DNA of 64,000 bases from an uncultured Hormoscilla sp. (GCA_963921275.4 OZ001293.3:576001-640000); one strand, 5' to 3'; positions 3,564-61,134 are shown, numbered from the stretch's first letter. Notes: generated by a model from the sequence alone, not told the origin. A program made the numbers and translations.

Positions 3564-4332
3564 TTGACCATTGGTTGGCCAACCCTGTCCCTAGCAGAAT
3601 CTGGTCTACCAGCGGTCGATGGACTGCCAACAAGACGAGAAGGAGGTGGCGCCCGCAGTATTTGTGTAGGCGGTGTTCAGCAGATGACTGCACTGGTGCC
3701 GAGCATCAATTTGGGCAAAACAATATCCAAAGATCCTACCTTCTTTGTCTATATTCCACCTAATAGGGCCCAGGGAGCAGAGATTGGTCTGATGGATTCT
3801 GAGGGTAACCAGATCTATAGCACTATTATTGAGCAGAATGTTGACTCTGGTGTGGTGGGCTTTAATCTGCCCGATCTCCCAACCCTGGAAATGGGTAAAA
3901 ATTACCAGTGGTACTTTCAGTTTATTTGTAATGATGACCTTGGTGCTTTTGTAGAAGGGTGGGTGCAACGAGTCGAACTGAGCGATCGCCTCCAGAGTCA
4001 GTTGCAACAGGCGGACTCACGCCAACGGGCCGAAATTTATCAACAAGAGGACCTTTGGTACGAGGCCCTGAAAACTCTGGCCGATCGCGTAGCGTGGCGC
4101 AGCCATGTTGCGCCGCTTGCATCCGTTCGATGCCTCTCGGGGCGAGGTGTCTCCTGGGAGCTCGATGTTTCCCGGGAGCGCTAAGCGCACTACCCAGGAG
4201 ACACAGGAGCGCTAATCGCACTACCAGAGAGGCATCGACGACTCAACCCTAGAGGCCCAATGGGAAGAACTCCTCACACAAGTCAATCTAAAACATTTGG
4301 CCCAACAGCCCGTTGTCAACACTGCTTTGTAA
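3564..4332 (+). pseudogene. DUF928 domain protein disrupted near its 3' end by hairpin insertions
   Basis: RREGGGAR, PTFFVYIP, YQWYF, GWVQRV and LWYEAL motifs. The C-terminus (DSTLEAQWEELLTQVNL) resumes after repeats at about 4089-4236. Confidence 0.75.
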
Positions 4333-4377
4333 GCACCCCAGGGAAAGTAGATCCCTTTTGTTGGCTTTGATGCTCCG

Positions 4378-4405
4378 GAAACCACCGGTTATAACCGGTG
4401 GTTTT
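4378..4405 (+). terminator. Hairpin, probable terminator
   Basis: aaaccaccggttataaccggtggtttt is a perfect palindrome followed by a T-rich tract. Confidence 0.5.
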
Positions 4406-4415
4406 ATTAATTTTT

Positions 4416-4429
4416 GTAACCATCGCTAC
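4416..4429 (+). promoter_or_regulatory. NtcA binding site
   Basis: GTA-accatcgc-TAC (GTA-N8-TAC) upstream of pirA, with a -10-like TATCTT at 4450. Confidence 0.7.
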
Positions 4430-4500
4430 ACAGTTTTTCCAGAAAGGGTTATCTTAGAAGTATGAGCCTTAATTAAATTTCGTCTAAAAAAAAGTCCACC

Positions 4501-4653
4501 ATGAACATGAATCGTCAAACCAGGAAAAAACTAGCCCAAGTCCATCAAGACAACCTGCAAAAGAACTTACAGCACCGGCTGGAAGTCGCCAGAACCAAAG
4601 GGGATGAAAACTTAATTCGGATGCTAGAGGCGGAAGCTAACTACTTCAGCTAG
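4501..4653 (+). CDS. pirA: PII-interacting regulator of arginine synthesis PirA (50 aa)
   Basis: MNMNRQTRKKLAQVHQDNLQKNLQHRLEVARTKGDENLIRMLEAEANYFS, with an NtcA box upstream. Below the ORF-track size cutoff. Confidence 0.8.
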   Translation: MNMNRQTRKKLAQVHQDNLQKNLQHRLEVARTKGDENLIRMLEAEANYFS

Positions 4654-4671
4654 AACGCTAGAGCATCGGTC

Positions 4672-4738
4672 AAGAAACCGGGTTTCTGTTACCAAAACGT
4701 CAATATAAGTGCTATTCCTGACGAGAAACCCGGTTTCT
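4672..4738. repeat. AGAAACCGGGTTTCT inverted-repeat MITE family
   Basis: Paired agaaaccgggtttct / agaaacccggtttct ends. Related copies near 6675, 15411, 17793, 18861, 20651 and 29346. Confidence 0.75.
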
Positions 4739-4800
4739 ATCTCATCTTGACCGACTCTATAGTCCATGTCAGCCGGTGTCAATTAATTTAACCGGTGCAT

Positions 4801-4832
4801 AGCCCACCCGATCGCTTCTCGGGTGGGCTTTT
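4801..4832 (+). terminator. Rho-independent terminator
   Basis: AGCCCACCCGA-loop-TCGGGTGGGCT followed by TTT. Confidence 0.6.
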
Positions 4833-4854
4833 GGCGCGATCGCCCCGTCCCAGA

Positions 4855-5243
4855 GGCGATTACTATCAATACTTCTCGGTTAATAACTTGTCATTGCGAA
4901 GGGGGGGAGTTTAAACCAACATTGTGAGTATCTTCGCTTATATTCCCCCCGAAGCAATCTCCCCGACGAGGTAGGAGATTGCTAGCTGCTGCGCAGCGGC
5001 TGCACGAACGGGGGGGTTAACTCAATTGAGAATAAGTTAATCGCTACTTCTGTGTTCCCTGCTGCTGCGTCTCCTGGGAGCTTGATGTCCCTCGGACGCA
5101 CGGCGAAACCCGGGGGACATCATCTGAGCACTACCCAGGAGATGCAGCGAGCTACTCGCACTACCCGGGGAACACAGCCCCCCCCTCGCAATGACAAATG
5201 TCCCAGCCGTCTTGCTTAACCGAAAAGTATTGCGATTACTATT
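4855..5243. mobile_element. Composite MITE with nested REP-like and hairpin elements
   Basis: Outer inverted repeat caatactt..cggttaa / ttaaccg..aagtattg, flanked by direct gcgattactat. Inner tgtcattgcga / tcgcaatgaca pair and nested hairpins at 5050-5178. Confidence 0.7.
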
Positions 5244-5285
5244 GTAATTAATATAGAATTAAATTGGCAGTAAGAGGAGGAGGGG

Positions 5286-5906
5286 ATGTCAAAGATAGCA
5301 GTTATCGAACCAGAAAAGTCTTATACATTTGCGGAATACTTTAAGTTGAACTGCGAACCAGACGATCTTCTAGCTTATTTTGGCTATGGGTACAAGGCCA
5401 AATCACTAACGTTGCCGCAGTCAAATCGGGAGTTAAATCGGTTAGAGAATCTGAAACAGCAGTTAGAACAAAATTTACCATACATTAGCCTGAGTAGTGA
5501 AATGGCAAGGCGAGAGTTTTTAATTGCTCCCGTGTTGATGGAGGTAATTTATTACACGAAAGCGCGAGTGAAGGTGGGGTATTCCTTAACCGTAAGCGAA
5601 CAACTGAAAGGAGAGTTAGATTATTATTTAAAATCCCAAAGTCAGTTACTGGTGATTGAAGCAAAAAATGCGGATCTCCAACGGGGCTTTACTCAATTAG
5701 CCGTGGAATTAATTGCGGTTTCGCAAGCGCAACTAGCGAAAGGAGACATACTCTACGGTGCGGTTTCCGTTGGGAATATTTGGCAATTTGCGGTTTTACA
5801 TAGTCAAGAACAGCAGGTTGTACAAGATCTAAATTTGTATCGGGTTCCGGCAGATTTACAGGAGTTGTTGCCAATTATAGTTGGGATTTTGGAACTGGAT
5901 TTGTAG
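5286..5906 (+). CDS. Hypothetical PD-(D/E)xK-like protein
   Basis: 206-aa ORF with SEMARREFLIAPVL, GELDY and VIEAK; GAGGAGG RBS upstream. Confidence 0.7.
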   Translation: MSKIAVIEPEKSYTFAEYFKLNCEPDDLLAYFGYGYKAKSLTLPQSNRELNRLENLKQQLEQNLPYISLSSEMARREFLIAPVLMEVIYYTKARVKVGYSLTVSEQLKGELDYYLKSQSQLLVIEAKNADLQRGFTQLAVELIAVSQAQLAKGDILYGAVSVGNIWQFAVLHSQEQQVVQDLNLYRVPADLQELLPIIVGILELDL

Positions 5907-5972
5907 TAGCATAAAATTTAGGATAATCCCAACTTGGAATTAAGATTATCCCTGTGCAACTGACTCTACTAC

Positions 5973-6569
5973 TTACTCAAGTCCACTCCGTAAGATCCCC
6001 AGAATCTTGCCAACATTATTCAGAAAATACTCATTTAAGTCTATGGATATCGTTTGTTCTTCAAGTTTCAAAAATTTCCAGTTAGTTCCTGTCGTGACTG
6101 AGCCATAGATGGTTTTAATTTCATTTTATTGGCGCTGATTAAATAACTGAGCTGCTAACATTTCGGCCATGCATTGCCCTAAGCCTGATTTAATGTTATC
6201 ATTTTTTGCTTCCACAAGAATGATAACGGGTGCTTCAATTAACAACTGTTCGGGAGAACGACTAATTAGAAAGTCGCAACGTCCATTCAAGCCTCTTTCC
6301 AAGTCAACATTAAAGTCTTTGCCTGAAAATAAGCTGATCTGACCCGTCAATTGTGTCTTGAGTTCAAATAAGATGGGGACAATGATAAATTCCGACCGGG
6401 ATTTTTCCGTGTCTATTGCTAGTGCTAAGGGTATATATTTTTGCAGCGCTTGTGCCAGAAAATCGCTGTACTCTATCTCGGGAATATCTGCAAATATCCC
6501 AAATTTATCGGAAATTGTTATGCCAAAGGTGATTTTGATTTCCTCTATGCTAAATTGACTGTATGACAT
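5973..6569 (-). pseudogene. Related PD-(D/E)xK-like protein with a premature stop
   Basis: EKSRSEFII, GRCDF and VEAK motifs. After the TAA at 6126 the frame continues as [16 protein letters not shown] to a stop at 5973. Confidence 0.7.
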
Positions 6570-6734
6570 TTGACTGCCTCTCTATTATCAGGAATGGGCG
6601 ATCGCCTCCTATATTGTAGCACATAAATCAGGGTGCATCTCACTTTTGCTGCTGGCATATTCGCTCCGGAGGCCAGAAACCAGGTTTTGACAAAAAACCT
6701 GGTTTCTTAATCCCAAATTGAGATGCACCTCATA

Positions 6735-7646
6735 AATCATTTGAAAACACCTGTCATGATATTAATAGTTAAACTGTCTCCATCGAGGGTTTTAATCACC
6801 AGATATTTACCAAACACGGACATTTCTATTCCCTGGTCTGGTAAGTCCTCACTAAATCGGATAGAACCACCTGGGTTAAACAGCAGCACTTCCTCTTCCG
6901 TCAGTACCGCTGTTACCCGATCGAGCGTCAGAATTTGTACTATAGGTTGTTAAGGGTAGTGCAACTAGGAGGCGACCGCTTTGCAGACAAATACAGGCTA
7001 ACTGTTGATCTACGCCGATCCAAACTGTATTTTGTTCCTCCCATACTTGAATTATCGGCTCTAGTGAGGAACTGCTTCGATATCTCCTGTTGTGCTCTTG
7101 TCCCAGGGGACTCGGCACACAGGAGATATCGCCAACTCATTCCGTAACTACCCAATCTTTCTCCCAAGTCTAAGATAGCAAATTTGTGAGAATAGTCATG
7201 GACAATTATCTGCCTCACTCCCTCCATAAGGTTGAACTCTGATTCTTTAATGCTTTCAATTTTATCCTGACTCCTGTTTATAGATTAACACTACGATCGA
7301 AGTTACTTGAGGCTTGACGGATAGGTCACCATTAGGATAAAAGTATCTAACTATGATAGCACTCTTAACTTCACTACCGCTTACTTCCACTTTCCTGGAT
7401 ATGTTCAGACCGTATTTGGTCAGTTTTCTTCCTTTCTGGATTTCTGGAGCATTTAATCTTTCCTGAAATATTTCGCTTGAGACGTTCTCTACCATCAGCA
7501 GCTTCGTCAATCCCTAGTAAATTCAAGTTTTCTAAGTTATCCGAGGATCTCCTGATATTTTTGGTGCTAGATGTAACCCTACCAAAAAAGAAGTCAAATT
7601 TACTTTCTTTGACGGTAAACCCTTTCCCCTCAATGTTCTGGCACAA
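6735..7646 (-). pseudogene. Two adjacent frameshifted hypothetical genes
   Basis: Overlapping ORF pieces 7374-7646/7262-7510 and 6940-7227/6876-7118. Confidence 0.35.
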
Positions 7647-7997
7647 TTGAATATTTACTCCCTACATAAATTATCTCTTATCCTCATCTTACTACAGTCG
7701 ATGTACTTGCGATATCGCCCTGATTGAGGCGCTATCGCGGCAACATCGTGGGGTTTTGAGTTGTCTGCATTTACTATCGCCATTTGGACAAATATCCTGT
7801 AGTTAACTACCCTGACTGTGTCAGCCAACTGGAAGCCTTATACTTATCTTACCATCGGATCGCTCAATTTTCAACCCCGCATTTTTTCCTCTATCTGCAC
7901 CGGATGCTGAGCCTCTAGAAACGGTCAATTTTACACTACATAATACTGCATTGTACCACATGATGCATACAAGACGCTACAGAAATGCTCCACCCGA

Positions 7998-8800
7998 CTA
8001 CTCTTTCGTCAGCAAAGGTTTAACATCGTGAAAGTGATTATAATCAATGTGTCGATCGCCATCCTTGCCCGTATACAAAACATCCACAAATCTCATATTC
8101 CAAATAATATCGGAGGCCCCATACAAATGACGAGCATGGATAGTCTGGGAAACTGTTTCATCCAGCCCTGTCATGAGCGCGATAATCTCCGGATTCCACT
8201 CAGCTAAATTCTCCTCTGTCACCCCATAAAGAGGACTGGTTTCGTCAATTTCATGCATCGCCATCCAACTGATAGTAAGAATGGGTGTCTGAGAACGAAC
8301 TAACTTAAGATCGCACAGCCGACGCAAAGAATGACCCTCCGACGTGACTTCTTCAGGCAGTACGATAGTAACTCGCAGTTGAGCTTCCACGATCCAATTA
8401 TTGCGCTGGTTAGCTATCCGAAACATCAGAGTAGGTATGCCATTGTAAGGACAAATAACTGCCACCCGACTGAACAGCACTCTCGCTGAAGGTTTTGAAA
8501 ACCGGGCAAACATCAGCGCCGTAGCGTTTGCGAACCCTAGCAGACCGAACAATGCCTCGAACGTTACCAACAGATGCGTGTAGGGTGTGGTAGGATACAT
8601 GGAACCGTAACCGATAGTTGCCATAGTCTGAATACTAAAAAAGAAAGCATCCTTAAAGTTACCCGATTGCGCATTGGCTATCCCATCTCCTCCAGCCAAG
8701 TACGCAAGGGCAAACAGAATGTTCGTCACCAAATACAATAGACAGATTAGCCCCAAAAACTCCCACCAAGAAATCATCAGCAGCCAATGGTACAGAAGTG
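7998..8800 (-). pseudogene. Inward-rectifier K+ channel (KirBac-like), 5'-truncated
   Basis: FFFSIQTMATIGYG filter and PTLMFRIANQR. The upstream LYHWLL segment runs directly into an unrelated gene fragment. Confidence 0.8.
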
Positions 8801-8824
8801 GAAGTGGGGTAACCCCAGCCGCAC

Positions 8825-9689
8825 GAACGATCGAAAGCTAGAGTCCTTATTTTTCAAGTGCTTTGATACCATGCGGGACTTACTCGATCGCCTGCAAGGA
8901 CCATTTGGCTTGCGAGATGAAGAAGCGAATCAAGTGATGCTGTCCGCGGAGCCAATCTTTGGCCAACTCCAAGCTTATCTAGAGAGTTTAACGGGTAGGG
9001 TTGCCGAACAGCCAATCAAAACAGATGCTGCTTCGATGTCTCTGGGGAGCTTGATGTCCCCCGGACGCACGGCAAAACCCGGGGGACATCATCTGAGCAC
9101 TACCCCAGAGACATCGCCACCTAAGCCAGATTTTGTGACTCAGGTAACGGCGGTCCTCAGAGAGATGTTGCAGCTGTTTAAGCAAAAAGCTAATCCTGCT
9201 AATCGTCAACAGCTGGAACAATTATGTAGCAGTCTCCTCAATCTGGGCGAAGATACGGAAAGCTGGCAAAATCTAGTACAAACGGCTCAGACTGCTATTG
9301 CTAATCCTAACTGTCCCTATCTCACCCTGGCTCCCCTGGTGATTAAGGAACTCAAGCAGGCAAGCGAACAACTGCAGGCTGGCCAAGCTAACCAAATCGC
9401 TCCTTCTAAAAACTTGCAACGCATAGCGGATAATTCTCCTTCTCAGCGAATTATCCTAGTTGTCGAACCAAAGGCAGCCGCAGAAACTCTGGTCAAGGCT
9501 TTCAACAAAAAGCAGCTATCACAATTTATGAAGGCGCTACAAACAACCGCTAAAACCCTCGACACCTCCCCATCACCCAACGTCCCCCGGTCGGGAAAAG
9601 TCCCCCGGGGCGAGGCATCCCCCGGGAGCGCTATTCGCACAAAAAGGGAGACGCCTCGCTCGACATCCCCCCAGAGGGAGACGCGCTAA
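8825..9689 (+). pseudogene. C-terminal part of a CheA-like/Hpt-associated protein, 5'-truncated, with hairpin insertions
   Basis: KLESLFFKCFDTMRDLLDRLQGPFGL segment; 84-nt insert at 9032-9115; repeat-derived tail after about 9560. Confidence 0.55.
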
Positions 9690-9845
9690 CCGCATCACCC
9701 ATCAGACATCATAACCACACCACCCGTCAGACATCATAACCACACAAAAAGGGAGACATCACCATCACACCACCCAGCGCAGTCCCGTAGAGGCGAGCAG
9801 GCATCGCAGCAAAGTAGTCTGTTGTCAATTGTCAGTTGTCAGTTG

Positions 9846-11171: not shown

Positions 11172-11265
11172 GGGAGAAGGTATTGCTCAAATTCATTACC
11201 GTTAATTGACTATACTTGATCTGTAAATAATTGTCAATCTTACTGATATATCCCCAAAATAGAAC

Positions 11266-11940
11266 ATGACTTCTGTGAATAAGCAAGATATGAAGGAAAA
11301 GCCGGCGAACAATAGTGAAAACCCTTGGATAGAGGGAATAAAGACGATCGCCATGAGTGGAATTTTGGCTTTTGGGATTAGAACTTTTGTAGCGGAAGCC
11401 CGTTATATTCCTTCGGGGTCGATGTTGCCAACTCTACAGATAAACGATCGCCTGATTATCGATAAGTTAGGTTATCGCTTCAGGGATCCGCAACGGGGAG
11501 ATATTGTGGTATTTAAGCCGACAGATGGACTGCTTGAGGACAATCCCAATCTGAAGGATGCTTTTATTAAGCGGGTGGTAGGTTTACCGGGAGAAAAGGT
11601 AGAGTTGCGCCAGGGAAAGGTCTATGTAAACGATCGCCCCCTGGCGGAAAAATATGTAGCTTCTGATTTTAACCCAGCTGCACCTGTGACGGCCTCATCG
11701 ACACATCAGCGGACGCAAATAAATGTCTGCCCACCAGATAAGCGGTTCCTCTCCCAACCAGTCACTGTGCCGGCCGACTCCTATCTGGTCATGGGCGATA
11801 ACCGCAATAATAGTTATGATAGCCGCTGCTGGGGGTTCGTGCCCCGCGATCGGATTATCGGCAGGGCGATCGTCCGCTTCTGGCCGTTTAATCACTTTGG
11901 TCAACTGGATGAGTCCTCGATATATCCCACTGAAAAGTAA
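11266..11940 (+). CDS. lepB: Signal peptidase I
   Basis: [20 protein letters not shown] and [11 protein letters not shown]. Confidence 0.95.
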
Positions 11941-12254
11941 AATACTGAGTGTTATTTTGACTTGAGAGGATAGTGCGATCGCTTTTTAACTGGGAAAATG
12001 CGATCGCGCTCTGTGTTCGTGGTAAGGGATCTATTATCCAATTATAACAACTGCGGTAGCTACGTTGGTCTTTGTTGAGTGGTTTATCTCTAATCTGGGT
12101 TGAATATATGTTACAGTTAAGGGATTACTTACTCTCTGGTAAGGTGGAAACTGTATATCTACCTCCTAAAGGGGGAAGTTTACTGGCATCCTGTCTTTTG
12201 CTGGCTTCTGTTTTGCTACTATCACTTTATCCGCCTGTACAGGAGAACCGGTTA

Positions 12255-12400
12255 TGACTTCATCAAACAAGGAAATTGTCACCCTTGATGTTGGTCCCAA
12301 TTTGGTGGACTGCGTTGGCGTTGTTCCCCAGAAATGTATGTTGGTGCGCGATGATCGGGATTTTACCTATTTCTATGAGGCTATTGAACAGTTGTCAAAG
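12255..12400 (+). pseudogene. DUF4377-like fragment
   Basis: An alternative frame reads VGPNLVDCVGVVPQKCMLVR..FYEAIE. Confidence 0.4.
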
Positions 12401-13910: not shown

Positions 13911-15289
13911 AGTGCTCCTGCTGCTGTTTGGTCGAGAATACTGCCACTAATGTGGGTAGTAATATTATGAGTTTCTAGCACGGGTTTTCCTTCCAGTCCT
14001 TTGGGGTAATCTATCACCGTAACTGCACAATTTCCCTGCTTAAATTTCCAGAAATGCTCTGGAGACAAGCCAAACAATTGGCAGAGAACAGCTTTATTGA
14101 TCGCGTCGTGGGCAACCACTAGACCTATACTGTTAGGGGGCGCCGATTTAACGATTTCATTCCAAGCTGCCATTCCCCGTTCCCAGACCTGCTGCAAGTT
14201 TTCTCCCTCCGGCATTTGCACCGTTGCCGGATCAGTTTTCCATTGCTCTAATTGACCTGGAAACCCTTTTTCAATTTCTGCTTTTAACTTCCCTTCCCAC
14301 AAACCGTGACTTATTTCTCTGAGTCCCTCAGACAGTTGCAGCTGCAATTGTGGGTGATGCTTTCGATGCCTCTCGGGAGCGCTAATCGCACTACCCGAGA
14401 GGCATCGGAGAATAATTTCTGCTGTTTCCTTGGGGCGTAACATGGGACTAGAAAAGGTAAAATCAATCTTCACATCTTTGAGAAACTCCCCAGCTTTCTG
14501 GGACTGTTGGCGCCCGGTTTCATTCAGCGGAATATCATTCCATCCCTGAAAGCGTTTCTCGCGGTTCCATTGTGTTTCCCCGTGACGCACTAGCAACAGT
14601 CGGCAACCCCGATGTCCTTCTCGCGGTTTGGGGAAACTCTCTCCCATATGAGATGTGAGATTCATCGATTCTAGCTGCACTGCTTCGCCCAAATCTCCAG
14701 CAAAATTCAGCACGCTGATGCTGCAGTTAGACTGCTGGAGCGAATGGTAGTAAGCTTGTGGAATTTCCACAGCGCTTGCCAGCAAGCAACGGTTAATGCC
14801 GTTGTGCGCCACTACCATAATTGTCTTGCCTTGATGGCGAGGCAAAACTTCCTGCCAGAATTTCTTTGCTTGCTCGTAGAGTGCTAAAACTGGATAATGT
14901 TCTCTGTTTCCCTCTGGTTCGGGTACTAGCATGTGAAATTCATCGGGACGTTCCTTCCAGCAGCGGTAGTCGGCGGCAAATTTTTCCTTTACCTCATCCC
15001 TGAGCATTTCTTCCCAGAGAGGCAGGTCGATCTCCCTCAAATTATCTACCTCACGCAATTCCAGCGATGGCTCTAAGCAGGATGCGATAATTTCTGCCGT
15101 GCTTTTCGCCCGTTGCAGAGGACTACAGTAGATGGCATCAAAGCTGAGACTCTTCAGGGCCGCACCCACTTTGCTGGCGTCGGCACGACCTTTTTTCGTT
15201 AAGACTGAATTGTCACACCGGCCCTGAATGCGGCCCTCAATATTGTAACTGCTTTGACCGTGACGGACTAGAATAACGCGAGTAGTCAA
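13907..15289 (-). CDS. Two-domain histidine phosphatase (phosphoglycerate mutase family)
   Basis: Two RHG motifs (LVRHGQS, LVRHGET); in-frame 45-nt insertion at 14362-14406. Confidence 0.9.
   Translation of the reverse strand: MTTRVILVRHGQSSYNIEGRIQGRCDNSVLTKKGRADASKVGAALKSLSFDAIYCSPLQRAKSTAEIIASCLEPSLELREVDNLREIDLPLWEEMLRDEVKEKFAADYRCWKERPDEFHMLVPEPEGNREHYPVLALYEQAKKFWQEVLPRHQGKTIMVVAHNGINRCLLASAVEIPQAYYHSLQQSNCSISVLNFAGDLGEAVQLESMNLTSHMGESFPKPREGHRGCRLLLVRHGETQWNREKRFQGWNDIPLNETGRQQSQKAGEFLKDVKIDFTFSSPMLRPKETAEIILRCLSGSAISAPERHRKHHPQLQLQLSEGLREISHGLWEGKLKAEIEKGFPGQLEQWKTDPATVQMPEGENLQQVWERGMAAWNEIVKSAPPNSIGLVVAHDAINKAVLCQLFGLSPEHFWKFKQGNCAVTVIDYPKGLEGKPVLETHNITTHISGSILDQTAAGAL
14362..14406. 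mobile_element. 45-nt hairpin micro-element, in frame within the CDS
   Basis: TTCGATGCCTCTC-GGGAGCGCTAATCGCACTACCC-GAGAGGCATC. Removing it gives EIILQHHP. Confidence 0.85.
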
Positions 15290-15885: not shown

Positions 15886-16125
15886 CTTGCGGTGTCCCCT
15901 GGGAGCGCTACTCGCACTACCCAGGGGACACCGCTCTGCCATTCTTCATCCCAGCCTAAATCTAGTTCATCAACCAGTCTACAAGCCTCCGCTAGGGCCT
16001 TGTCTTCCTGCTGCTGCCGCCATTGTTGCAAGAGAGATTCAATCAAGGCGCTACGGTTGTCTACCTTTTGGTCTAGGTATGCCAGCAAGTCATCGGGCAT
16101 GGGCGGCCATTTGCTACGATGAGTC
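15870..16125 (-). CDS. CopG/RHH-like antitoxin with an in-frame 45-nt insertion
   Basis: PDDLLAYLDQKVDNRSALIE, directly upstream of the toxin. Insert at 15888-15932. Start uncertain. Confidence 0.6.
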
Positions 16126-16215: not shown

Positions 16216-17769
16216 ATGACTATCAAGCGGTTTATTTTAGGTGCCCTCACAGTTTTGGCTCTGGCCCTAGTTGGTCTGTCTCTGTACAGCAGCTGGAGTC
16301 AGCCTCAGTTTCAAGGTCGTCTGGAACTCTATGAAACTAATCTCTTACTTCAAGCTAGCGAGTGGCAAGGCGGTTCTGACGATGGGCGTGAGAACTCTGT
16401 ACGCGATCTACTGCTAGGGTCCGGCGTGACTGAAACTGCCTTACAACAGTATCTCGATGCCCGCGATCGGGCCCAGTCCTTACTAGACCAACTCCAGATG
16501 CAACTCCCACAGTCCGCCGATCCCAGCATCCCCGGGCAAATATCTCAGCTGCACAATGAGATCGATCGACTGAATCTGCGCCTCGGCATTTTACAGATAG
16601 CTACCGATCAAACCTTCGATGCCGTCGGGGTGTCGCGCTACTCGCACTACCCCACGATGCGCGAAAAATCGCGCATCGAGGCCGCAATGGATACCTGGGA
16701 CAATTTATCTGACTCTTCAAGGTTGGTTAATACTGCTATCCTCTTAGAGGGACTTTGGAAAGATCCTCCTCGCTTCCCCGCTGATACTGAGCTCCAAATT
16801 AACGAACAGTTGGACGGATGGTTCCGCTATCAAGCTTTATTGCGACTTTATCAATTACAGAAACGCCAGGACTTATTTGGGGCCCTGTCCGCTGCGGAAC
16901 AAGAAGTGGCCCAGGAAGTTTTTTTCAAGTTAGTGCTAGCTAGCGGTATTCAAACTTTAGCCGCAGTCTTGGGGACAGGATTGTTAATTTTTATTCTGGT
17001 CCAGCGGCTGCTGAAAGGTAAAGAATCCCTCTGGACTCAGAATGTCGATCTTTCCTGGTTCGCCCCTTGGGATCTAGAGACGATTTTGCAGGTACTTGTC
17101 CTCGGGTTTTTCTTTGTCGGACAAATTCTTATCCCCCTGTTCTTGCAGTTGCTGCCCATCAACGAAGCTGCTGCTGGCGCTACCACTCAGGCTTTTTATA
17201 TTCTGGTAAATTATCTGCTACTCGCTTTGGGGGGCTTGTTAGTATTAGTGCTATCTGTAAAGCAATTTTTACCCTTGCCCAGCCCTTGGTTTCGTTTTGA
17301 TTGGCTAGAATATCAATGGTTAGGATGGGGACTGGGTGGCTTTCTGGCCGCCATGCCTTTGGTGATTGCCGTATCTTTGATTAATCAGCAGTTCTGGCAA
17401 GGACAGGGGGGCAGTAATCCCATTCTGCCTCTCGCTTTGCAGGGTCGCGAACCCTTGGCGATCGCCCTTTTCTTCTTGACTGGTTCGGTAGCTGCACCTA
17501 TCTTTGAAGAAATCATCTTCCGAGGATTTCTCTTGCCCTCTTTAACTCGCTATTTTCCCCTTTGGGGGGCGATCGCCTTTTCGAGTCTCTTGTTTTCTGT
17601 CGCTCACCTCAATCTCTCGGAAGTCCTGCCCCTGATGACTTTGGGCATGGTGCTGGGGTTCGTTTATACCCGATCGGGCAATCTCCTAGCTCCCATTTTA
17701 CTCCACAGTCTCTGGAATGGCAGCACCTTATTCACTCTCTTTCTCCTCGGCAGTGGTGCCAATGGTTAA
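16216..17769 (+). CDS. CPBP/Abi family intramembrane glutamic endopeptidase
   Basis: APIFEEIIFRG, FSVAH and LLHSLWN; in-frame 63-nt insertion at 16615-16677. Confidence 0.9.
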   Translation: MTIKRFILGALTVLALALVGLSLYSSWSQPQFQGRLELYETNLLLQASEWQGGSDDGRENSVRDLLLGSGVTETALQQYLDARDRAQSLLDQLQMQLPQSADPSIPGQISQLHNEIDRLNLRLGILQIATDQTFDAVGVSRYSHYPTMREKSRIEAAMDTWDNLSDSSRLVNTAILLEGLWKDPPRFPADTELQINEQLDGWFRYQALLRLYQLQKRQDLFGALSAAEQEVAQEVFFKLVLASGIQTLAAVLGTGLLIFILVQRLLKGKESLWTQNVDLSWFAPWDLETILQVLVLGFFFVGQILIPLFLQLLPINEAAAGATTQAFYILVNYLLLALGGLLVLVLSVKQFLPLPSPWFRFDWLEYQWLGWGLGGFLAAMPLVIAVSLINQQFWQGQGGSNPILPLALQGREPLAIALFFLTGSVAAPIFEEIIFRGFLLPSLTRYFPLWGAIAFSSLLFSVAHLNLSEVLPLMTLGMVLGFVYTRSGNLLAPILLHSLWNGSTLFTLFLLGSGANG

Positions 17770-29276: not shown

Positions 29277-29659
29277 GGGTTCGTAATAAGCACGAAGCGT
29301 GCTTCCCAGGCGCGAAAGCGCCTATAATATCGGTCAAGTATTCTGAGAAACCGGGTTTCTACTTAGCTTTTCAACGATATATAAATGTTAGTTCTAGTGA
29401 CCAGGGTCTCCCTGGTCACTCCCGGTTGAGGCTCTTCCGGTGTCTCCCGGGAGCGCTACTCGCACTACCCGGGAGACACCGGCTCCTGGCCTACCGTTCC
29501 GGAAAAATCGGAGGGCGACTGTTTTTCCGCACTCACGAGAGTAATTACCGAGGCTGCTTTTCTCATTCACAGGAGGCAGCCGCTTCCCAGGACTGAGTAT
29601 TCCCAGGGAGACCCTGGGAACGAGGGTAACGAGGGTATGGTTCTACAGCGACCAAGCTC

Positions 29660-30526: not shown

Positions 30527-33396
30527 TTATGTCCAGTCACCGAGCGCCCGAACGAACGCCTGTTGGGGCCGCACCCAGAGGACAGTCTCTTGCTTGTAGA
30601 TGACCATACCAGGTTTGGCGCCCTTGGGTTTATAAACATGCTTGGGGGCTGTGTACACCACCGGCACCCGATCGCTCTGGCGTCCCTGACTATAATACCC
30701 TGCCAGGTCGGCGGCAAATTGCAAATCCACGTCATCGGGTAGTTTACCAGGTTGTAACCGCATGAGCACGTGACTACCAGGAATTTCTTGGGTGTGAAAC
30801 CAGAGGTCATAGTCATTGGCGATCCGAAAAGAGATCTGGTCATTCTGCCGGTTGTTGCGACCGATTAACAGTTCAAAACCGCTGGGTGTCTGGAAACGAT
30901 AAGGAACAGAAGTATCAGTATGGCGTCGATGCCTGAGCGATGCCCGAGGGGTAGTGCGACTAGCGCTCCCCTCGGGCATCGTAGGTTTTTGCGTTAGCGC
31001 AGCGGCTGCGCAGCCGCTAGCATCCCGAAGGCATCGAAGGCGGGGCTGTTCGGACTTGTCCAAATATCCCTGATCGATTAACTCTTCGCGAATTTCTGCT
31101 AGAGTTTGTAAATCTTCCTTGGCCTCGTAGCTATCCAGTTGCCAGACGGTAGCTTTCACCAGTTCGAGATACTCAATTTCTACCTTCACTTGGTTGAATA
31201 ATGGTTCAACTGCACTGCGGGCCCGTTTCAGCTTCTGGTGACGCTTGTAAAGGGATTGAGCATTTTGGATAGCATTCTTTTTGGGATCTAGGGGAATGGT
31301 AATGGGTACATTTGTTTGGAAGTCGCACAGGGAAATGGATGTCATTCCCGGTTGCCATTCTTGCAAGTAGGCCATCAGCAAGTCAGCCTGTTGACGATGC
31401 TCGTCGGCGGAGTCCGATTGCTGTAACCGTTCCCAGAATGTCAGGGCTTTTTGACCCTGCTTTTCTAAGAGGCGATCGAGTTTTTGCAGGAGTTGATGGC
31501 GGAGTTGGGTGAATTCCTGGCGGTTCAACTGGCTGGTATAGTAGCGATCGAGCAATTCATGGGTAGAAGGGACTGGTGCCGTTGCGCCCCAACCCATGAT
31601 AGTATATCCCTCTTTTGTCCAGCCCGGATGAAATTGCGCTGTTTCTAGGGCCTGCAACCAGAATTGCCAGCATTTCCACAATTGCTGCCACTCTACATCT
31701 GTGAGAGTATCGGTAGGTTGATTTGGCTCTAACCCCGCTGCTGCGACCATTGATTTTACCAGGGTTGGACTCAGTCCGCGATAGCATTTGAGCAGTTGAC
31801 GCCACAACTGTCCGGGAACTAATCCCACTCGCTCTTGCCAGTGTTGGGGAGATTCGCTTAAATTGGGAATAGGATTAGTCAGGGCTGGTGGCAGTGAGTA
31901 GGGCTGACCGGTGAGAATGGGACGGACGCTGGATTTTTCTTCGCTTACCTGGTGGGCGGCTGTGACGATCTGGTTCTGCTGATTGGTTAAAATTAACCTA
32001 AGTTGCGACCTATTAAAAAAAATATGAATTACCCACTTAGACTTTACAGATATTTGGGATATTTCGTAGCTTTTGATACAAAATTATATTTTTTTTGTGC
32101 TAGACGGCGGGTTGGCTGTTTATAGGTTATAATGTACTAAAATAATAGTTAATTGCTGGGGGATGTAGATGATGGAAGATATGATTACAACAATTTTTGT
32201 TCTTTGTGACGAGCTACTAAAAGCGTTAAATATAAAAGAAGATCCACAAGTAAAAATGAACAATGCCGAAGTGATGACAGTCGGATTAGTTGCTGCATAT
32301 TTTTTCGGAGGACACCACGATCGCTCTTGTCAATTTATGGTCGAACACAAGTATATAAAAAATCTGTTAAGTAAAAGTAGGTTCAATCGTCGATTACACA
32401 ATATTGACGACCAATTTGGATGTTTTTCTTCCAAGTTATAGCTCAAACATTTAAAGAGCTCAATCCGGGTCAAGAATATATTCTTGATAGTTTCCCGGTG
32501 CCAGTATGTGATAATATTAGGATTGATAGATGCCAAATTTATAACAAGGAAGAATATCGAGGGTATATTGCCAGTAAAAAACGTTATTTTTATGGATTAA
32601 GAGTTCATATGTTGGTAAACAAAAATGGAAAGCCAATAGAATTTTATCTAGATCCTGGTAGTTATAATGATGTTAAAGTTTTGCAATCTTTTGGCTTTGA
32701 CTTACCATCAAATTCAATAGTTTATGGAGATAAAGCTTATAATGATTATCAATTAGAGGATTTACTAAAAGAGTCGTCAAGTATAATGTTAAAACCTTTG
32801 CGAAAAAAGAACTCAAAAAGAAAAGAATCTTCTTGTTTTGAATATATACAAAAAGTAACAAGAAAACAAGTTGAAACCTGTTTTAGTCGAATCACCAATT
32901 TGTTTCCCAAGTCAATTCATGCTGTTACATCTAAGGGATTAGAGTTGAAAATAATTCTCTTTATCATAGCTTTTTGTATCCAATTTTTATAGATCGCAAT
33001 TTGAGTTAAAATTACGTTACTGTATTTGCCCATGATCTCTACGTACAGGTGCCAGAGGGCTGGTTCTCCCGGACGCTTGGCAAATTGTAGGTCTAAGGCC
33101 CTTTCCCAAGGGGCGACTGTTTCAATGGCCACCCAGGCCAGACCATGCAGTTGATGTCGGAGTTGGTCGCTAAAGGTAAAGGTATCGGGGATTTTCGGCG
33201 GTGGGTCGCCGATGCATATATGTGCGGCTTGGGGATGCCAGCAGATATTTAGCCAATTTCGGCCCCTCAGGGTACGCAATGCTAGGGCCAGATTGTGCCG
33301 ATCGCGCTGATAGACTTGTTCTAGTCTGGCGGGCAGCATGCGATCGCGCAGTTCAGCACAAGCAGCAGTTAGGGTAGTAAAGTCAACGGGTTGCAC
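30527..33396 (-). pseudogene. NFACT/RqcH (FbpA-like) protein split by an IS982
   Basis: VEIMGKYSNVIL|TNQQNQ rejoins across the IS; GRNNRQND and WFHTQEIPGSH. Also carries an in-frame 111-nt insert at 30928-31038. Confidence 0.9.
31996..33006 (+). mobile_element. IS982-family element with a frameshifted transposase (32169-32992)
   Basis: TIRs acctaagttgcgacctat / atagatcgcaatttgagt; 8-bp TSD taaaatta at 31988-31995 and 33007-33014; DSFPVPVC, YFYGLRVH and GDKAY motifs. Confidence 0.9.
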
Positions 33397-33801: not shown

Positions 33802-34600
33802 GTTAAACTAAGCCAGGGTGTTGCCACCCCGTCTCGTCTTCAGAACCGGACGATCTGCTTTTCACCTCATCCGGCTCCTCAGTAATGCCATCCCTGTCAT
33901 GGATACGGCGACTACCATCGCTGGCAGTTTTTTTTACATCGTAGCAGTTGTCGCCACGTTGTGCCGCTCTGTAAATTCTCAGAAGCAAAAGACTTTCCTT
34001 TCCAGCTTTCGCCAGGGGGGGTTGTCCTCCATTCATTCATTGGTTTGATTACCGTGCTCATAAGGTTTTTACTGCTACTTACAACTTCACATTTGACATT
34101 ACCGTGGTCGGCTTATCCTGTCCATTACAGATAGGCGTTTGCTTCTCCACGAAATCCTTCCTAATCATGACCTGCCTGATGAAGGCAGAGGTTGCGCCTT
34201 TGGTGGCTATCGACTCGATAGAGAGTACATGATCAGGTTACTTCGTTCCTACAGGTGATTAGTTGTAGCTAAGGATGGATTCCTTACGCCGGGTTTGTTG
34301 TCGGTGCTTACTGGTCGGTGAGCAGAACCGCCAGCGACCTGTATCCTTTCCCTTTTGGGCCGTCAGCCTTATTTCACTGGTTTTATGTTACGACGCTGCA
34401 AATCTTTGCTTTATGCTCATCATGGCTACTTGCTTGGCTTCGATGCCTTCGGGATGCAACGCAGGCAACCCCTCAGGTATCGGACCGGTGTAGGCTACCA
34501 GTCGCCTTTCATTCCCGCTTTACGGATTGATGCCATCGCTACCGTCGGGAATGTGCTGTCACTCCTACACCTGGAGGGATTGAATGTTCTCCGCTCATGC
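33802..34600 (-). mobile_element. Group II intron I1: RT internally deleted, 5' end lost
   Basis: DV gagccggatgaggtgaaaagcagatcgtccgg and DVI ending tagtttaac. The RT N-terminus (RIYRAAQRG) is fused to its C-terminus (KTASDGS). The RNA is homologous to I4. Confidence 0.8.
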
Positions 34601-36900: not shown

Positions 36901-36969
36901 ATAAATCATTCAATCTTTCTATCGCCTTTGCTCTCTGATCTACTCCTGTCAGTTATATTAGATATTAAA

Positions 36970-41514: not shown

Positions 41515-42104
41515 GGGAGAGGAACGAAGTAACCCCCGTGGTGCTGTCCTCATTTGGACAAGTCAGATGTGCGTCCGCGTAGCGTGCGCGCAGCGCATAG
41601 CGCATGCCCATGAGGGGAGAGATGGCCCGAGAGGCTAATGCCTAGGCGGTGTCTGGAGCATGCCTTGGTGTCTGGAGCACACCGAGTCCTTCAGGACAAG
41701 AGTGTGCGGAAGACGCCAAAGTCCTTCAGGACAAGAGCATGCGGAAGACGCCGGTAATGCCTATGGATACGCAGACGCGGGTCGGTGATACTAGTAAACT
41801 ATTGGTACAAGTAGCTCTAAAATGTCATAAGCCCATTTACAGCGTTAGCGAAAGCGAGTTGAGGATTGAGGAATGTTTAACTGGTAAAACGGAGTGTTAA
41901 ATGGTGATACTAAAGGTTATCCGGCAGCTCCACTCACCAACCAGGAAAGGGGCGGACGTGCAAGTAGTAAGGGACAATGGGAGTAATCCCTAGTAATCCT
42001 ACCCGTGAAAGGGGCCCTAGTATCCAGTAGCCGTGTGCGGTGAAAGTCGCATGCACGGTTCCGAAAGGGAGGGTTGTCCCGCGAGGGACAGCTCGACCCC
42101 GACT
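41515..42104 (+). ncRNA. ORF-less group II intron I7, 5'-truncated
   Basis: Homologous to I5 and I8 from ggaacgaagtaac onward; DV agccgtgtgcggtgaaagtcgcatgcacgg; ends cgaccccgact. Confidence 0.8.
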
Positions 42105-42256
42105 TGCATTTAGCCTGTGCGGAAAAGATAAGGGTTGGTTATTTTATTACTTGTGACGATCACATGATTAAAAGGTATCGGGGATATCTGATTGTCATAA
42201 ATCCTACTACATTTGCTAATGATGCTATTAACACAGGAGGCGAAAATGACAAGTAA
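42105..42256 (+). pseudogene. C-terminal part of a PIN-domain protein (3' exon of I7)
   Basis: LHLACAE..YFITCDD...VINP. Confidence 0.65.
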
Positions 42257-42458
42257 ATTGGTTGTTCCGAAAATGGAGTATATTAGGATTGAAGGCATGA
42301 AAGCAATTATCGATCGATTGGTAATTGCTCAAGCGGCTTTCTTTTTCCGTGCTAATCTTTCCCAAGAGGTGGATTATTTACAAGTAAAAGAGGAGATGTT
42401 TGGCGATAAATCTGCTAGGGAACTTTATGAGGAAATTAAAAACCATAGTTCGGTGTAA
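42246..42458 (+). CDS. Small hypothetical partner of the PIN gene
   Basis: ATG overlaps the end of the PIN gene; AGGAGG RBS upstream. Confidence 0.55.
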   Translation: MTSKLVVPKMEYIRIEGMKAIIDRLVIAQAAFFFRANLSQEVDYLQVKEEMFGDKSARELYEEIKNHSSV

Positions 42459-42656
42459 TATAGCGTTTCTCAAATTAATGTGGTACGGAATCATCGCCTA
42501 CTTGTCATTGCGAGGGGGGGAGTAAGGCGAGTAACTTATGCGAGGAGTGAGTTACCCCCCCCCGAAGCAATCTCCGACAGCATATCACACTAATATGAGA
42601 ACTGCTATAGCAGCTTTTATTTGTGAGAGATCGCCCGTTATCGCCGCTGCACGCGA

Positions 42657-43409
42657 TCACCCGATCGGGTGCCGCCCGTGCAGCCCGATCGCACCCCCCC
42701 ATCGCGCACTTGATCGCCCCTTTCCCCGATCGCCCCTTCCCCGATCGCCTTCCGGAACGCCCGCACTCACACCCGCTTCGCCCCTTTGCCCAAGCGCCCA
42801 TCTTCCAAGGGTTCGGGCTCTATCAGTTATATCTATACCTAGATTTGACAACCTTTGCAGTGATATACTTACTTCGTACCTAACCTGTTCTGAAGGGTCA
42901 TTTTTCATCTGCAAAAGCTCAGCTAATGCTTCCTGTGACAATTCTTCATCGCTCTCGTTTTGAACTATATGTTCTAATCCATGAGATACAAACGCTCTCG
43001 GACCTTCTTTTTCCAATGTCTTCATAGAACAGAGCGTTTCAAATGCCCGTCGATCCTGATAATATTCTCCTATAATTTCATAAATTACAAACCATGACAT
43101 CCAATCCTCGAATTTTTCATAAGAATCTTTTAATGCTGGAAGAAGTCGCTCTTTTTGTTCCTCAGACAGAAACTCCCAATTATACATCAATACCTGAACA
43201 AATAAGCATCGTGATTCTTCTAGTTCTAAAATCTCCCGTCGCTTTAATAAACTAAGAATCATTTGGAATATCTCTTCGGGAAAATTATCACAAAAAAAGA
43301 TTAGATTATCGTCCAGAGCCTTGCAAAACGCTTCAAACTGTGCAACACCACCAATACTAATAGCTTGGACAGCTTCTTGGAGAGCTTCTTCAATACTTTT
43401 TCTATCCAC
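42657..43409 (-). CDS. Putative immunity protein (helical-repeat), paralog of 51619-52323
   Basis: Highly similar to the gene after the main Rhs, and preceded by a copy of the toxin tail GVLILIPGPQPI (43590-43630). Its C-terminus is extended by repeats. Confidence 0.7.
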   Translation of the reverse strand: MDRKSIEEALQEAVQAISIGGVAQFEAFCKALDDNLIFFCDNFPEEIFQMILSLLKRREILELEESRCLFVQVLMYNWEFLSEEQKERLLPALKDSYEKFEDWMSWFVIYEIIGEYYQDRRAFETLCSMKTLEKEGPRAFVSHGLEHIVQNESDEELSQEALAELLQMKNDPSEQVRYEVSISLQRLSNLGIDITDRARTLGRWALGQRGEAGVSAGVPEGDRGRGDRGKGRSSARWGGAIGLHGRHPIG

Positions 43410-43638
43410 TATCCCTACTCCTTATTAATCAACCTTTCTGTCGGTACATTAATAAAACTAATTGAACAAACCGTTGCCAAGTCCGAAATATTGTAGCTAT
43501 TATATAGCATTTTTAATCTAGTGAGGTACGGAATAATTGGCTATCACTGGCAGTGCCAAGAATGTCGTACCTCACGAGGGTGAAACCGCTATATAGGCTG
43601 TGGTCCGGGTATTAGTATGAGAACTCCAAACTTGTTTA

Positions 43639-44502
43639 TCATTCCCCCCAATGAGATCTCTTGTGAGAGTAATGACGTCTATTTTGAAAAGAGACTATGG
43701 AAAGGTTTTTTAACTTTAATAAAGGAGAAAGATCTCCATCTACTATCTTTGTCGAACCAGTAAACAAAACCATCTCTAGCTTGTTTAATTTTTCCAGTAG
43801 TTTTAACGAATCAATGTCACGGTTATCACAAATCTGTAGCTTTTTAAGCTTGTCAAGATTGGCAATTTCATTTATAGATGTTAAGGACGAACAGTTCTTA
43901 ATTTCGCATTCTTCTAGAAGAGTTAAATCTTCTATCCCAGACAAAGATGGTAGTTTTGTTAGATAATAAAGACCGAGAATTTTTAGTTTACATAGTTGTT
44001 TCAAACCCTCAAGACTTTTAATTGGTGCAACAGATATCCGCAATGACTCTAATTCGGTTAAATTTGAAAACTTGGATGTGTCTTGTTTAGTATAGCGATA
44101 GATAAACAACCGTTTTAAGGTTTTTCGATTAAATATAGATTTTGCTTTTGCTCTCCAAGATAAAAAGCAGTCTTCTAAATGAGGAAATTGCTCGAAATTT
44201 ATTTCGGTTTTACAATATGTACTTACTTCTAAGCTTTGTAATGAATGAAGATAGTTGATTGGAGAAATATCATCTATATTCCAATCAATTATGGAGAAAC
44301 ACCTTAAATGCGACATAGTTTTAAGAAAAGATAAATCTTTTCCTTTCCATCCTCTAGCATAATTAAGGTGAAGCTCTTTTATATCACGATCTAGAATGAA
44401 TTGGGTAATCTCATCGCTCCATGAAGAAGTTACTACAACCTTAACACCATGCTTTCCTTTTTCAAGAATAAATTTCTGCTCCATTGTTATTTTATGCTCC
44501 AT
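43639..44502 (-). CDS. Leucine-rich-repeat protein, putative immunity protein
   Basis: LxxLxxLxL repeats; AT-rich; follows a toxin fragment. Confidence 0.75.
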   Translation of the reverse strand: MEHKITMEQKFILEKGKHGVKVVVTSSWSDEITQFILDRDIKELHLNYARGWKGKDLSFLKTMSHLRCFSIIDWNIDDISPINYLHSLQSLEVSTYCKTEINFEQFPHLEDCFLSWRAKAKSIFNRKTLKRLFIYRYTKQDTSKFSNLTELESLRISVAPIKSLEGLKQLCKLKILGLYYLTKLPSLSGIEDLTLLEECEIKNCSSLTSINEIANLDKLKKLQICDNRDIDSLKLLEKLNKLEMVLFTGSTKIVDGDLSPLLKLKNLSIVSFQNRRHYSHKRSHWGE

Positions 44503-44636
44503 TATTATTCACTGTGTGAGGGGCAAGAGTACCATTCAGGCTTAATATCCTGTAAGCCAGGACCTCTAAAGGCTTAAGCCTTTAGAGTAGGTCTTTTTTC
44601 AGGATAACTTTGCACTCTCCAGTTGTTTATCCAATG

Positions 44637-45275
44637 TTATTCATCCAATAAATGCCTTCTTTTTGGTCCAATCGGGTTTTTCTTATTCTCAAGATTTTGA
44701 ATCCCACCCAGTTCATCAATTATTCGTTGTTTGGCAATTTCTCGTTGGGTCTTACCGCCAACAACTTCTATTCTGTTAGCATTAGGTAACTCATCAGGAT
44801 CTAGTTTCCCTGTCTTTATATGTTGTTGCGAAAGATAAATCTTTTTCTTCCCATCCTTTAGCATGATTAATCTCGAGATCCTTTAGATCGCGATCTATAA
44901 TGAATTGTACAATCTCATCGCTCCATCGCCCAACAAGACCAATGAGATCGATCTCGGTAAACTGACCAATAGCATTGTAGCCAAAGTCCACCCGCTTATC
45001 CCTGACATTGTTGCCCGTCTGGGTGAGTTGGGTGAGGCGGTTCAAGGAGGAGAAGCTGTAGGCATTCGTGCCCCCTTTCGATGCCCTCGGGATGCTTCGC
45101 AAAAACCCCTCGGGCATCGCCACCCCATTGATAGTATCTGTCACCGACTTGACGTTGTCAACACCGTCGTAACTGTAGCTGAACCCACAAGGAACCACAT
45201 TGGGTGCCCCTGGAGTGCCAGTATTGTCTGCCGTCAGGACGCGATTCGCGGTTGTCATAGGTAAAGGCCAGGTGT
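44637..45275 (-). pseudogene. Mosaic of an Rhs core fragment, an LRR fragment and an orphan toxin tail
   Basis: Rhs (GNNVRDKRVDFGYNAIGQF) joins WSDEIVQFIIDRD..GWEEKDLSF (a copy of the LRR gene) and then ..RIIDELGGIQNLENKKNPIG. Confidence 0.7.
45077..45118. mobile_element. 42-nt hairpin micro-element with empty-site paralogs in the window
   Basis: TTCGATGCCCTCGGGATGCTTCGCAAAAACCCCTCGGGCATC inserted in ccccct|gccacccc. Empty sites are at about 48637, 51374 and 54070. Confidence 0.9.

Positions 45276-58751: not shown

Positions 58752-61134
<2,383 letters not shown>

Follow-up and report, generated by a model that had tools for sequence, protein, structure and literature searches.

The question raised by a 64,000-nucleotide (nt) stretch of DNA from an uncultured Hormoscilla sp. 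(GCA_963921275.4 OZ001293.3:576001-640000; this whole stretch is called the window) is what the short hairpins are that recur inside and between its genes, with a common tip carried on paired arms. A first reading of the sequence by a model, referred to here as the original prediction, had described them as hairpin micro-elements of 42-45 nt that preserve the reading frame and have a fixed loop and fully covarying stems. Our analysis confirmed that the observation of hairpin micro-elements is real. We read them, with a probability of roughly 0.6, as a family of non-autonomous DNA insertion elements, very small hairpins that nest in one another, seen in Hormoscilla among the matches listed from a genome scan.

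Hairpins of the window and their insertion sites

The 22-base core GGGAGCGCTANTCGCACTACCC had seven matches in the window at three mismatches or fewer, at positions 4174, 4205, 14375, 15901, 16631 and 29449 on the plus strand and 30949 on the minus strand, against 0.00 expected, and none of 100 dinucleotide-preserving shuffles contained seven. As examined by a search for perfect inverted repeats, the cores are the tips of perfect stems of about 12-15 base pairs (bp), or 14-15 bp when the GGG/CCC of the core is included. Specifically, stems of 14 bp were found at 14364-14407 and 30938-30981 and stems of 15 bp at 15889-15934 and 29437-29482. More complex hairpins within like stems were found at 4127-4238, 5050-5177, 30926-31037 and 9034-9116, the last with an outer stem of 14 bp that encloses a second hairpin. 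When folded as single-stranded DNA, all eight elements tested beat every one of their 200 shuffles (z -3.0 to -9.8). The inverted-repeat search and the shuffles thus confirm the recurring core with perfectly complementary stems that had been claimed at 14362, 15888, 29436, about 30938 and 9032. The sister loop GGGATGC..CGCA..AACCC (type 2 in Table 1) was likewise found at all three places named for it, namely 45077-45118, 34439-34481 and the outer shell of 30928-31038. The stems had also been called different each time. They do covary, as described below; their sequences are not unrelated, varying instead around the consensus CGATGTCTCCTG.

Protein alignments showed that five of these elements are additions to genes. 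The histidine phosphatase has 15 extra amino acids (RCLSGSAISAPERHR) that are absent from P0002 (92% identical) and from eight other cyanobacterial orthologs, and P0001, a histidine phosphatase 97% identical, has 17 extra amino acids at the same site. In the Hpt protein, 28 added residues are absent from four Hormoscilla-like orthologs (79-83% identical) and four more distant ones, and a C-terminal extension (...GEASPGSAIRTKRETPR...) is absent from all eight aligned orthologs. Furthermore, 21 residues of the CPBP protein are absent from seven relatives, all of them just 46-53% identical, 37 residues of RqcH are absent from three Hormoscilla orthologs (P0122-P0124) and six other cyanobacteria, and 14 residues of an RHS fragment are absent from three paralogs in the window. 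The alignment of host genes with orthologs that the original prediction had called for thus showed five inserts to be absent from relatives or paralogs. Presence or absence differs between close relatives, and the absence of three inserts from other Hormoscilla proteins indicates that the insertion events are recent. Note that P0124, one of the Hormoscilla RqcH proteins, has an independent insert of about 50 residues (...PPFQKGGLPEAPLFKGGLGG...) at a different site (alignment columns 280-330), which suggests that further repeat families invade genes in Hormoscilla.

The RHS paralogs provide an empty site at the DNA level: three of them read GGC|AGG where the filled copy reads GGC[42 nt]AGG, and the target is neither duplicated nor deleted. 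Read on the strand of the element, TTC opens and CATC closes each of the five gene inserts, with a G as the first host base behind it. The predicted boundary rule (two unpaired bases, usually TT, then C, and an end just before a host G) is therefore exact at the RHS empty site and fits the other four gene inserts. Of the 48 well-formed copies from the window and other genomes (defined below), 44 have a G directly behind the 3' arm and 41 have a C as the first base of the stem. Beyond Y^G little of the target is shared, as GCCA starts three of 11 right flanks (GCCAAC, GCCACC and GCCACC) and two sites read CTGC^GCCA. The elements are thus shown to be discrete, precise block insertions directly 5' of a G, and this host base then closes the stem.

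The distribution of the family was examined by scanning one genome per species, 185,579 species in all, for an exact 20-base core. The scan gave at least 77 loci, and 77 of the 77 matches listed were from four Hormoscilla metagenome-assembled genomes (MAGs); the proteins of the window are also closest to Hormoscilla proteins. A search of the plasmid database PLSDB with a 52-nt element gave no match. In Rfam, a scan of the window at gathering thresholds found no family at the elements, and an E-value scan of 4000-17000 returned a chance miRNA match only (E 0.85).

Sharp ends and recurring units bear on an explanation in which no transposon takes part and the copies are short insertions templated by other copies in the course of break repair or of template-switching at replication, their arms being homogenised by intrastrand template switching (quasi-palindrome correction). 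Perfect arms with few intermediates fit such arm-to-arm correction, orthologous loci differ by indels bounded by direct repeats (L042 vs L060/L070), and no mobilising enzyme was found in the window. In addition, composites that have lost an inner arm look, to judge from their sequence, like products of deletion between repeated cores (4147-4204; L058), which such a process would also yield. However, untargeted copying would not give five independent inserts with the identical ends TTC...CATC beside a G, and in four genomes complete units, constant in length, are found again at sites that have nothing in common. We consider templated repair an improbable origin of the family.

Reading frame, covarying arms and apical modules

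We compared element length modulo three inside and outside open reading frames (ORFs), with 952-1071 and 9609-9660 omitted from the counts. The six elements within ORFs measure 111, 84, 45, 63, 111 and 42 nt, and all are multiples of three. The five elements outside ORFs of at least 100 amino acids measure 129, 55, 47, 47 and 43 nt, with boundaries set by the rule alone, and one of them is a multiple of three (6/6 vs 1/5, Fisher exact about 0.015 by our own arithmetic). The original prediction had listed gene inserts of 45, 45, 84, 63, 111 and 42 nt. Five of these were verified against relatives, and the second 45-nt insert was not found in a gene, since the solo copies other than that at 14362 (15887 and 29435) lie outside any ORF of at least 100 amino acids; the sixth genic insert is the 111-nt element at 4126-4236. 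Frame preservation is accordingly not a universal property of the family. The DUF928 gene is cut short by its 111-nt copy, which introduces TAA in frame and so ends the ORF. This stop, together with the copies outside ORFs that are not multiples of three, suggests that the triplet lengths are mostly what selection lets survive in genes, although the most frequent solo lengths (45 and 42 nt) are multiples of three in their own right.

Copies that survive in genes with the frame kept add 14-37 residues. The original prediction had spoken of peptides added to housekeeping proteins; several of the hosts are already damaged. Two of the six elements are in genes that look whole, one is at the 3' end of a gene, and the hosts of the other three are damaged or fragmentary: an insertion sequence (IS) divides RqcH, the RHS host is a fragment, and the Hpt protein lacks its N-terminal (Hpt) domain. 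The IS is AT-rich, encodes a DDE transposase (32420-32992) and interrupts the RqcH/NFACT gene over 31829-33400, the N-terminal part continuing at 32917-33396(-). The RHS fragment belongs to a region, 44794-55899(-), with three paralogous RHS/YD-repeat blocks, Ntox16 tips, DUF6714 ORFs and repeated small ORFs, and resembles an array of polymorphic-toxin cassettes whose tips are displaced.

Of the 62 non-redundant copies in other genomes, ten are in a frame that stays open from one end of the 620-nt locus to the other, and for 13 the open frame measures 450 nt or more. Eight of these 13 use the same sense frame (...GSATRTT...), three are antisense as in the phosphatase (RCLxGSAxSAP), and one each uses two other sense frames. 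A Pfam search of all 13 frames gave nine with a match at E of 0.001 or lower, four of them above the curated cut-off (AMIN, HI0933-like, RodZ and GHL10).

Covariation was tested on 82 copies from the fetched loci and the window, of which 67 non-redundant copies remained once 15 without any difference over the core ±13 nt, which are orthologous copies in sister MAGs, had been dropped. The alignment was ungapped and the hairpin was specified by hand; three apical pairs and two pairs inside the search pattern were invariable by construction. Of 14 outer stem pairs, 11 had changed on both sides. The proportion of paired cells was 88.6%, compared with 76.2 ± 0.7% for shuffled partners and 33-52% for partners slid by one to three columns. 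Compensated cells numbered 153 against 46 ± 8.5 in shuffles, and none of 500 shuffles reached as high, so that the covariation of the stems is highly significant. At least ten of the 12 Watson-Crick pairs next to the core are present in 48 of the 67 copies, and all pairs are perfect in 30; the other 19 copies are degenerate or recombined. Stem sub-families, for example CTGTGT..., are shared by all four MAGs and show additional compensated changes there.

We also examined whether stems are hypervariable between orthologs, and they are not: in 14 of 17 ortholog pairs the central 52 nt show no difference, and the remaining three pairs have 98% identity there. Flank identities of these pairs were computed ungapped and are unusable where indels occur.

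This identity between MAG orthologs, like the strong conservation of apical module and pairing, would suit host-functional sequences that spread secondarily and are kept by selection on the hairpin, such as sites for protein binding or nucleoid organisation, or structures that stabilise mRNA or resemble terminators, roles of the kind proposed for repetitive extragenic palindromic (REP) sequences and bacterial interspersed mosaic elements (BIMEs). Against such a role, many copies are inside coding sequence, where they occur in both orientations, and the DUF928 copy truncates its gene. Moreover, intergenic copies have no T-runs behind them and presence or absence varies among close relatives. 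A host function as the origin of the family therefore seems very unlikely.

The mismatches in the arms are informative about the nucleic acid that folds. The 48 good copies contain 22 mismatches, of which two are G·T or T·G, nine are A·C or C·A and the remaining 11 are of other kinds; the rarity of G·T indicates that the pairing is Watson-Crick and DNA-like, not wobble-tolerant. An asymmetry of mismatches between strands, which might tell which strand folds, was not significant (p = 0.065, and 0.57 with looser filters), and the presence of elements in genes in either orientation also fits DNA-like pairing. These observations argue against spread through RNA, in which a structured small RNA, for example one from a larger repeat of about 130 nt described below, would be reverse-transcribed by one of the many reverse transcriptases of the genome and the cDNA integrated or copied into breaks. 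Such a route would agree with insertions that lack target duplications, with the embedding of the type-1 hairpin in that larger, well-conserved repeat at 12 loci, and with a window unusually rich in retroelements (five matches to group II intron domain V/VI and two reverse transcriptase ORFs, a kind of gene for which the original prediction had suggested looking). On the other hand, besides the rare wobble pairs and the lack of significant strand bias, the ends are sharp on both sides without a 3' tail, no Rfam family was found for the element in the window or for the larger repeat at five loci, and no positional link of introns with elements was seen, except for the type-2 copy at 34439 near a reverse transcriptase ORF. 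We regard RNA-mediated spread as very doubtful.

Insertion elements moved as DNA thus remain our preferred reading, and the copies share a simple anatomy. A unit opens with two unpaired bases, which are TT in some 60% of the copies; then come a GC-rich stem of 12-14 bp (consensus CGATGTCTCCTGGG) and, at its tip, an apical module drawn from a small conserved set. The stem consensus, (TT)CGATGTCTCCTG...CAGGAGACATCG, is common to all types and bears four or five different apical modules, indicating that the stems belong to the element. Type 1 has the module GGG-A-GCG-CTANT-CGC-ACTA-CCC, and type 2 is the sister loop mentioned above. Type 3 (CGGACGCACGGCRAAACCCGG) has two copies, both within a type-1 loop (5083-5122 and 9052-9091), and type 4, with a module of 27 nt, was found at 7076-7130 and at loci L018 and L027 with compensated stem changes. 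Mini-hairpins or palindromes of 24 nt are contained in 16615-16677 and 30928-31038. An unbiased search for hairpins with GRTRYM arms returned these discrete loop classes and a few unrelated chance pairs only. Units sit in one another's loops and, in combination with the deletions between repeated cores, give nested composites of 63-129 nt (Table 1). Comparison of L058 and L077 showed a 24-nt palindromic module, TCGCGTAGCGTGCGCGCAGCGCAT, that is present in one MAG and missing at the orthologous place of another, and this module resembles the 23/24-nt module of the RqcH composite.

Table 1. Hairpin elements of the window, with lengths and ends of the 11 elements other than the two degenerate ones set by the boundary rule (TT, then C, end just before the host G).
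Element	Position	Strand	Structure and location
Solo type 1, 45 nt	14362..14406	+	Antisense in two-domain histidine-phosphatase gene 13907-15289(-); adds RCLSGSAISAPERHR
Composite, 84 nt	9032..9115	+	Type-1 outer hairpin with type-3 hairpin (9052-9091) in its apical loop; sense in Hpt-domain gene 8787-9689(+)
Degenerate type 1	9609..9660	+	In C-terminal extension of Hpt gene; covariance-model match 20.6 bits, E 0.0013
Composite, 63 nt	16615..16677	+	Type-1 5' arm and core, then 24-nt mini-hairpin GATGCGCGAAAAATCGCGCATC; in CPBP/Rce1-like gene 16216-17769(+)
Composite, 111 nt	30928..31038	-	Type 2 enclosing a palindromic 23/24-nt module and a complete type 1 (30938-30981); sense in RqcH/NFACT gene 30527-31828(-)
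Solo type 2, 42 nt	45077..45118	+	Antisense in RHS-repeat fragment 44794-45348(-)
Nested composite, 111 nt	4126..4236	+	Type-1 copies with internal deletions; 3' end of DUF928 gene 3564-4184(+)
Triple-nested composite, 129 nt	5048..5176	+	Outer type-1-like, middle type 1, inner type 3; no ORF of at least 100 amino acids
Type 4, 55 nt	7076..7130	+	Stem consensus kept, 27-nt apical module; no ORF of at least 100 amino acids
Solo type 1, 47 nt	15887..15933	+	15-bp stem; between divergent genes; covariance model 73.4 bits; ends by rule alone
Solo type 1, 47 nt	29435..29481	+	15-bp stem; 160 nt downstream of 7TMR-HD gene; covariance model 71.5 bits; ends by rule alone
Type 2, 43 nt	34439..34481	+	One G-T stem pair; no ORF of at least 100 amino acids; just upstream of group II intron reverse transcriptase ORF
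Degenerate composite, about 120 nt	952..1071	-	GAGATGTCC/GGACATCTC arms, diverged type-1 core; in putative ORF 696-1163, which gave no family and no homolog evidence

Comparison with known small repeats and a putative mechanism

Full-text literature searches with pieces of the core gave unrelated primer matches only, and topic searches gave nothing closer; no description was thus found in these searches, in agreement with the undescribed status that had been suggested. In two Hormoscilla genome papers (PMC6520454 and PMC7313196), the passages reached by term searches hold no mention of such repeats. By analogy, the elements would work most like the small dispersed repeats (SDRs) of Nostoc and like REP elements, and their effect on proteins would be like that of Rickettsia palindromic elements (RPEs).

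From the work of Elhai et al. in 2008 (Genome Res 18:1484) on Nostocaceae, SDRs are reportedly nested and associated with hairpins. They are given as 21-27 nt long, and SDR5 as inserting between the third and fourth base of HIP1, in the part of PMC4390886 that deals with them; a statement in PMC5861425 has SDR-like repeats as not found outside Nostocaceae. Compared by the descriptions in these excerpts, the Hormoscilla elements resemble SDR4-6 in being non-coding, high-copy, precise insertions of tens of nucleotides in a HIP1-rich filamentous cyanobacterium. The same descriptions set them apart, as the Hormoscilla units are 42-55 nt long, have inverted arms of 12-14 bp of their own and insert at Y^G, not at HIP1. 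HIP1 (GCGATCGC) occurs 27 times in the window (388-56921), against 0.73 expected. Insertion of the SDR5 type into HIP1 was rejected, since no HIP1 halves border any of the 11 window elements despite the abundance of HIP1.

RPEs, as presented in a section of PMC10969869, are palindromic, lie in frame in unrelated protein genes and add peptides to them. The Hormoscilla elements are likewise found in frame in unrelated genes, with the peptide read through in the ORF. RPEs differ in size (about 100-150 bp), host (Rickettsia) and sequence, and covarying arms, a fixed tip and self-nesting do not form part of the RPE description.

REP sequences and REPINs go with RAYT (TnpA-REP) transposases, and a Y1 HUH enzyme is believed to act on them while they are folded as single-stranded DNA. 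Like them, the Hormoscilla elements are short GC-rich hairpins, dispersed and of high copy number, and form imperfect palindromes. However, the REP foot carries the conserved, unpaired tag GT[AG]G/CGTC, whereas here the foot is TT and GTAG (on the complementary strand of the type-1 core) is located in the internal loop between the long stem and a 3-bp apical stem. REPs are also mostly extragenic and often form inverted doublets, while the Hormoscilla copies are solo or nested and many are intragenic, and no RAYT, in REP systems a single-copy gene with the repeats on its flanks, was seen in the window.

Elements of the IS200/IS605 family insert 3' of a conserved tetra- or pentanucleotide and have a separate hairpin at each end. 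The Hormoscilla elements share with them the lack of target duplication and the dependence on DNA hairpins. A weak TnpB-like remnant is the only hint of this family in the window: it lies at 1898-2341(-), matches the NCBIfam model guided_TnpB below its cut-off (E 4.9e-6) and adjoins a tandem repeat array of 21-22 nt at 1315-1430 (GTGACATGCCATATAGTAATG-like). The ORF 2434-3390 was considered as a nuclease and rejected, having sub-threshold Pfam and PDB matches only.

Miniature transposable elements with inverted repeats (MITEs) of cyanobacteria (Nezha, MaeMITE and those of Anabaena) have stably folding terminal inverted repeats, empty and filled sites and occasional ORF fusions, according to passages of PMC3184786. 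The 12-14 bp arms of the Hormoscilla elements are likewise the ends of the insert, that is, terminal inverted repeats, and these elements too are non-autonomous. MITEs are, however, 120-435 bp long, generate direct-repeat target duplications and have a matching IS, whereas the present units are of 42-55 nt and lack a duplication, as seen at the RHS site. A link to the only IS in the window (32420-32992) was examined and rejected, as its ends are unrelated to the elements.

The ssDNA/RNA-hairpin mobility mechanism of the original prediction is conjectural; in our putative version of it, an element would be recognised and moved as a folded single DNA strand by an enzyme encoded elsewhere. The likeliest candidate may be a transposase of the Y1 HUH type, akin to those of IS200/IS605 or to RAYT, which we favour because its chemistry leaves no duplication and depends on DNA hairpins, and because such genes are common in cyanobacteria. 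Cyanobacteria have RAYT subclasses of their own, and the IS200/IS605 family is common among them, as stated in parts of PMC6006769. The strict Watson-Crick complementarity of the arms could follow from a need for good folding in mobilisation, or else replication could bring one arm into line with the other. A bolder version would make the elements a new class of gene-tolerant, single-hairpin mobile DNA of about 45 nt without target duplication, with arms templated by each other during transposition or replication, with units in multiples of three (45, 42 and 24 nt) and stop-free frames that evolved for coding sequence, and with an enzyme not linked to known repeat families; we put this forward tentatively, as an unlikely extension.

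Several points weigh against reading the family as mobile DNA insertion elements of Hormoscilla moved by such an enzyme. The co-occurring HUH or RAYT nuclease that the original prediction had suggested looking for is missing from the 64-kb window, in which no HUH, Y1 or RAYT gene was found. Relative to IS200/IS605, only Y^G is shared at the target, and both ends form one hairpin instead of two subterminal ones. The polymorphism of presence and absence could in principle include precise losses. Nested junctions in type-1 loops are short by one or two bases compared with the canonical core, so that nesting may be partly a matter of recombination, not insertion. Within the window the core clearly varies less than the stems do; among the fetched loci the constancy of the loop is partly a search artefact and is overstated, because these loci were fetched by the exact core. 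Finally, as the scan gave at least 77 loci, it leaves room for occurrence outside Hormoscilla.

Associated repeats and implications

Other repeats accompany the elements. A larger repeat of about 130 nt is present at 12 loci (L006, L008, L014, L033, L034, L041, L045, L051, L058, L063, L065 and L075); its type-1 hairpin is always located between GGCCCGCCTTC and GAGGGTTCAAACC, and a second, terminal hairpin is formed by AGTCGGTT..AACCGACT. The flanks of this repeat are nearly constant and its type-1 stem varies from copy to copy. A tRNA or tRNA-like origin was rejected, as ARAGORN found no genes in any of the 12 loci, and Rfam searches of five of them gave nothing at E up to 1. A second, unrelated family of hairpin repeats has AGAAACCNGGTTTCT arms that enclose 5-40 nt, with copies at 4673-4738, 6675-6707, 15411-15444, 17796-17855, 18861-18926 and 20651-20684. 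The matches to group II intron domain V/VI are at 36487-36564(+), 36964-37041(-), 39151-39227(+), 42026-42103(+) and 59943-60020(+), and the reverse transcriptase ORFs are at 35076-35891(+) and 36970-38316(-), one of them with maturase and HNH domains.

If the family is as we read it, its members would count with the smallest insertion elements of bacteria whose ends are exactly defined, and it would be the first SDR-like family outside Nostocaceae, found in an uncultured cyanobacterium that is a sponge symbiont. It would provide natural experiments of two kinds, one on the tolerance of proteins (histidine phosphatase, RqcH, RodZ and a flavoprotein) to random inserts of 14-37 residues, and the other on a hairpin that is kept perfect while its sequence drifts. 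For work on Hormoscilla MAGs, the inserts mean that gene predictions are inflated and distorted, and the elements are likely to break short-read assemblies. Since the elements differ between close relatives, they may also serve as strain-level markers.

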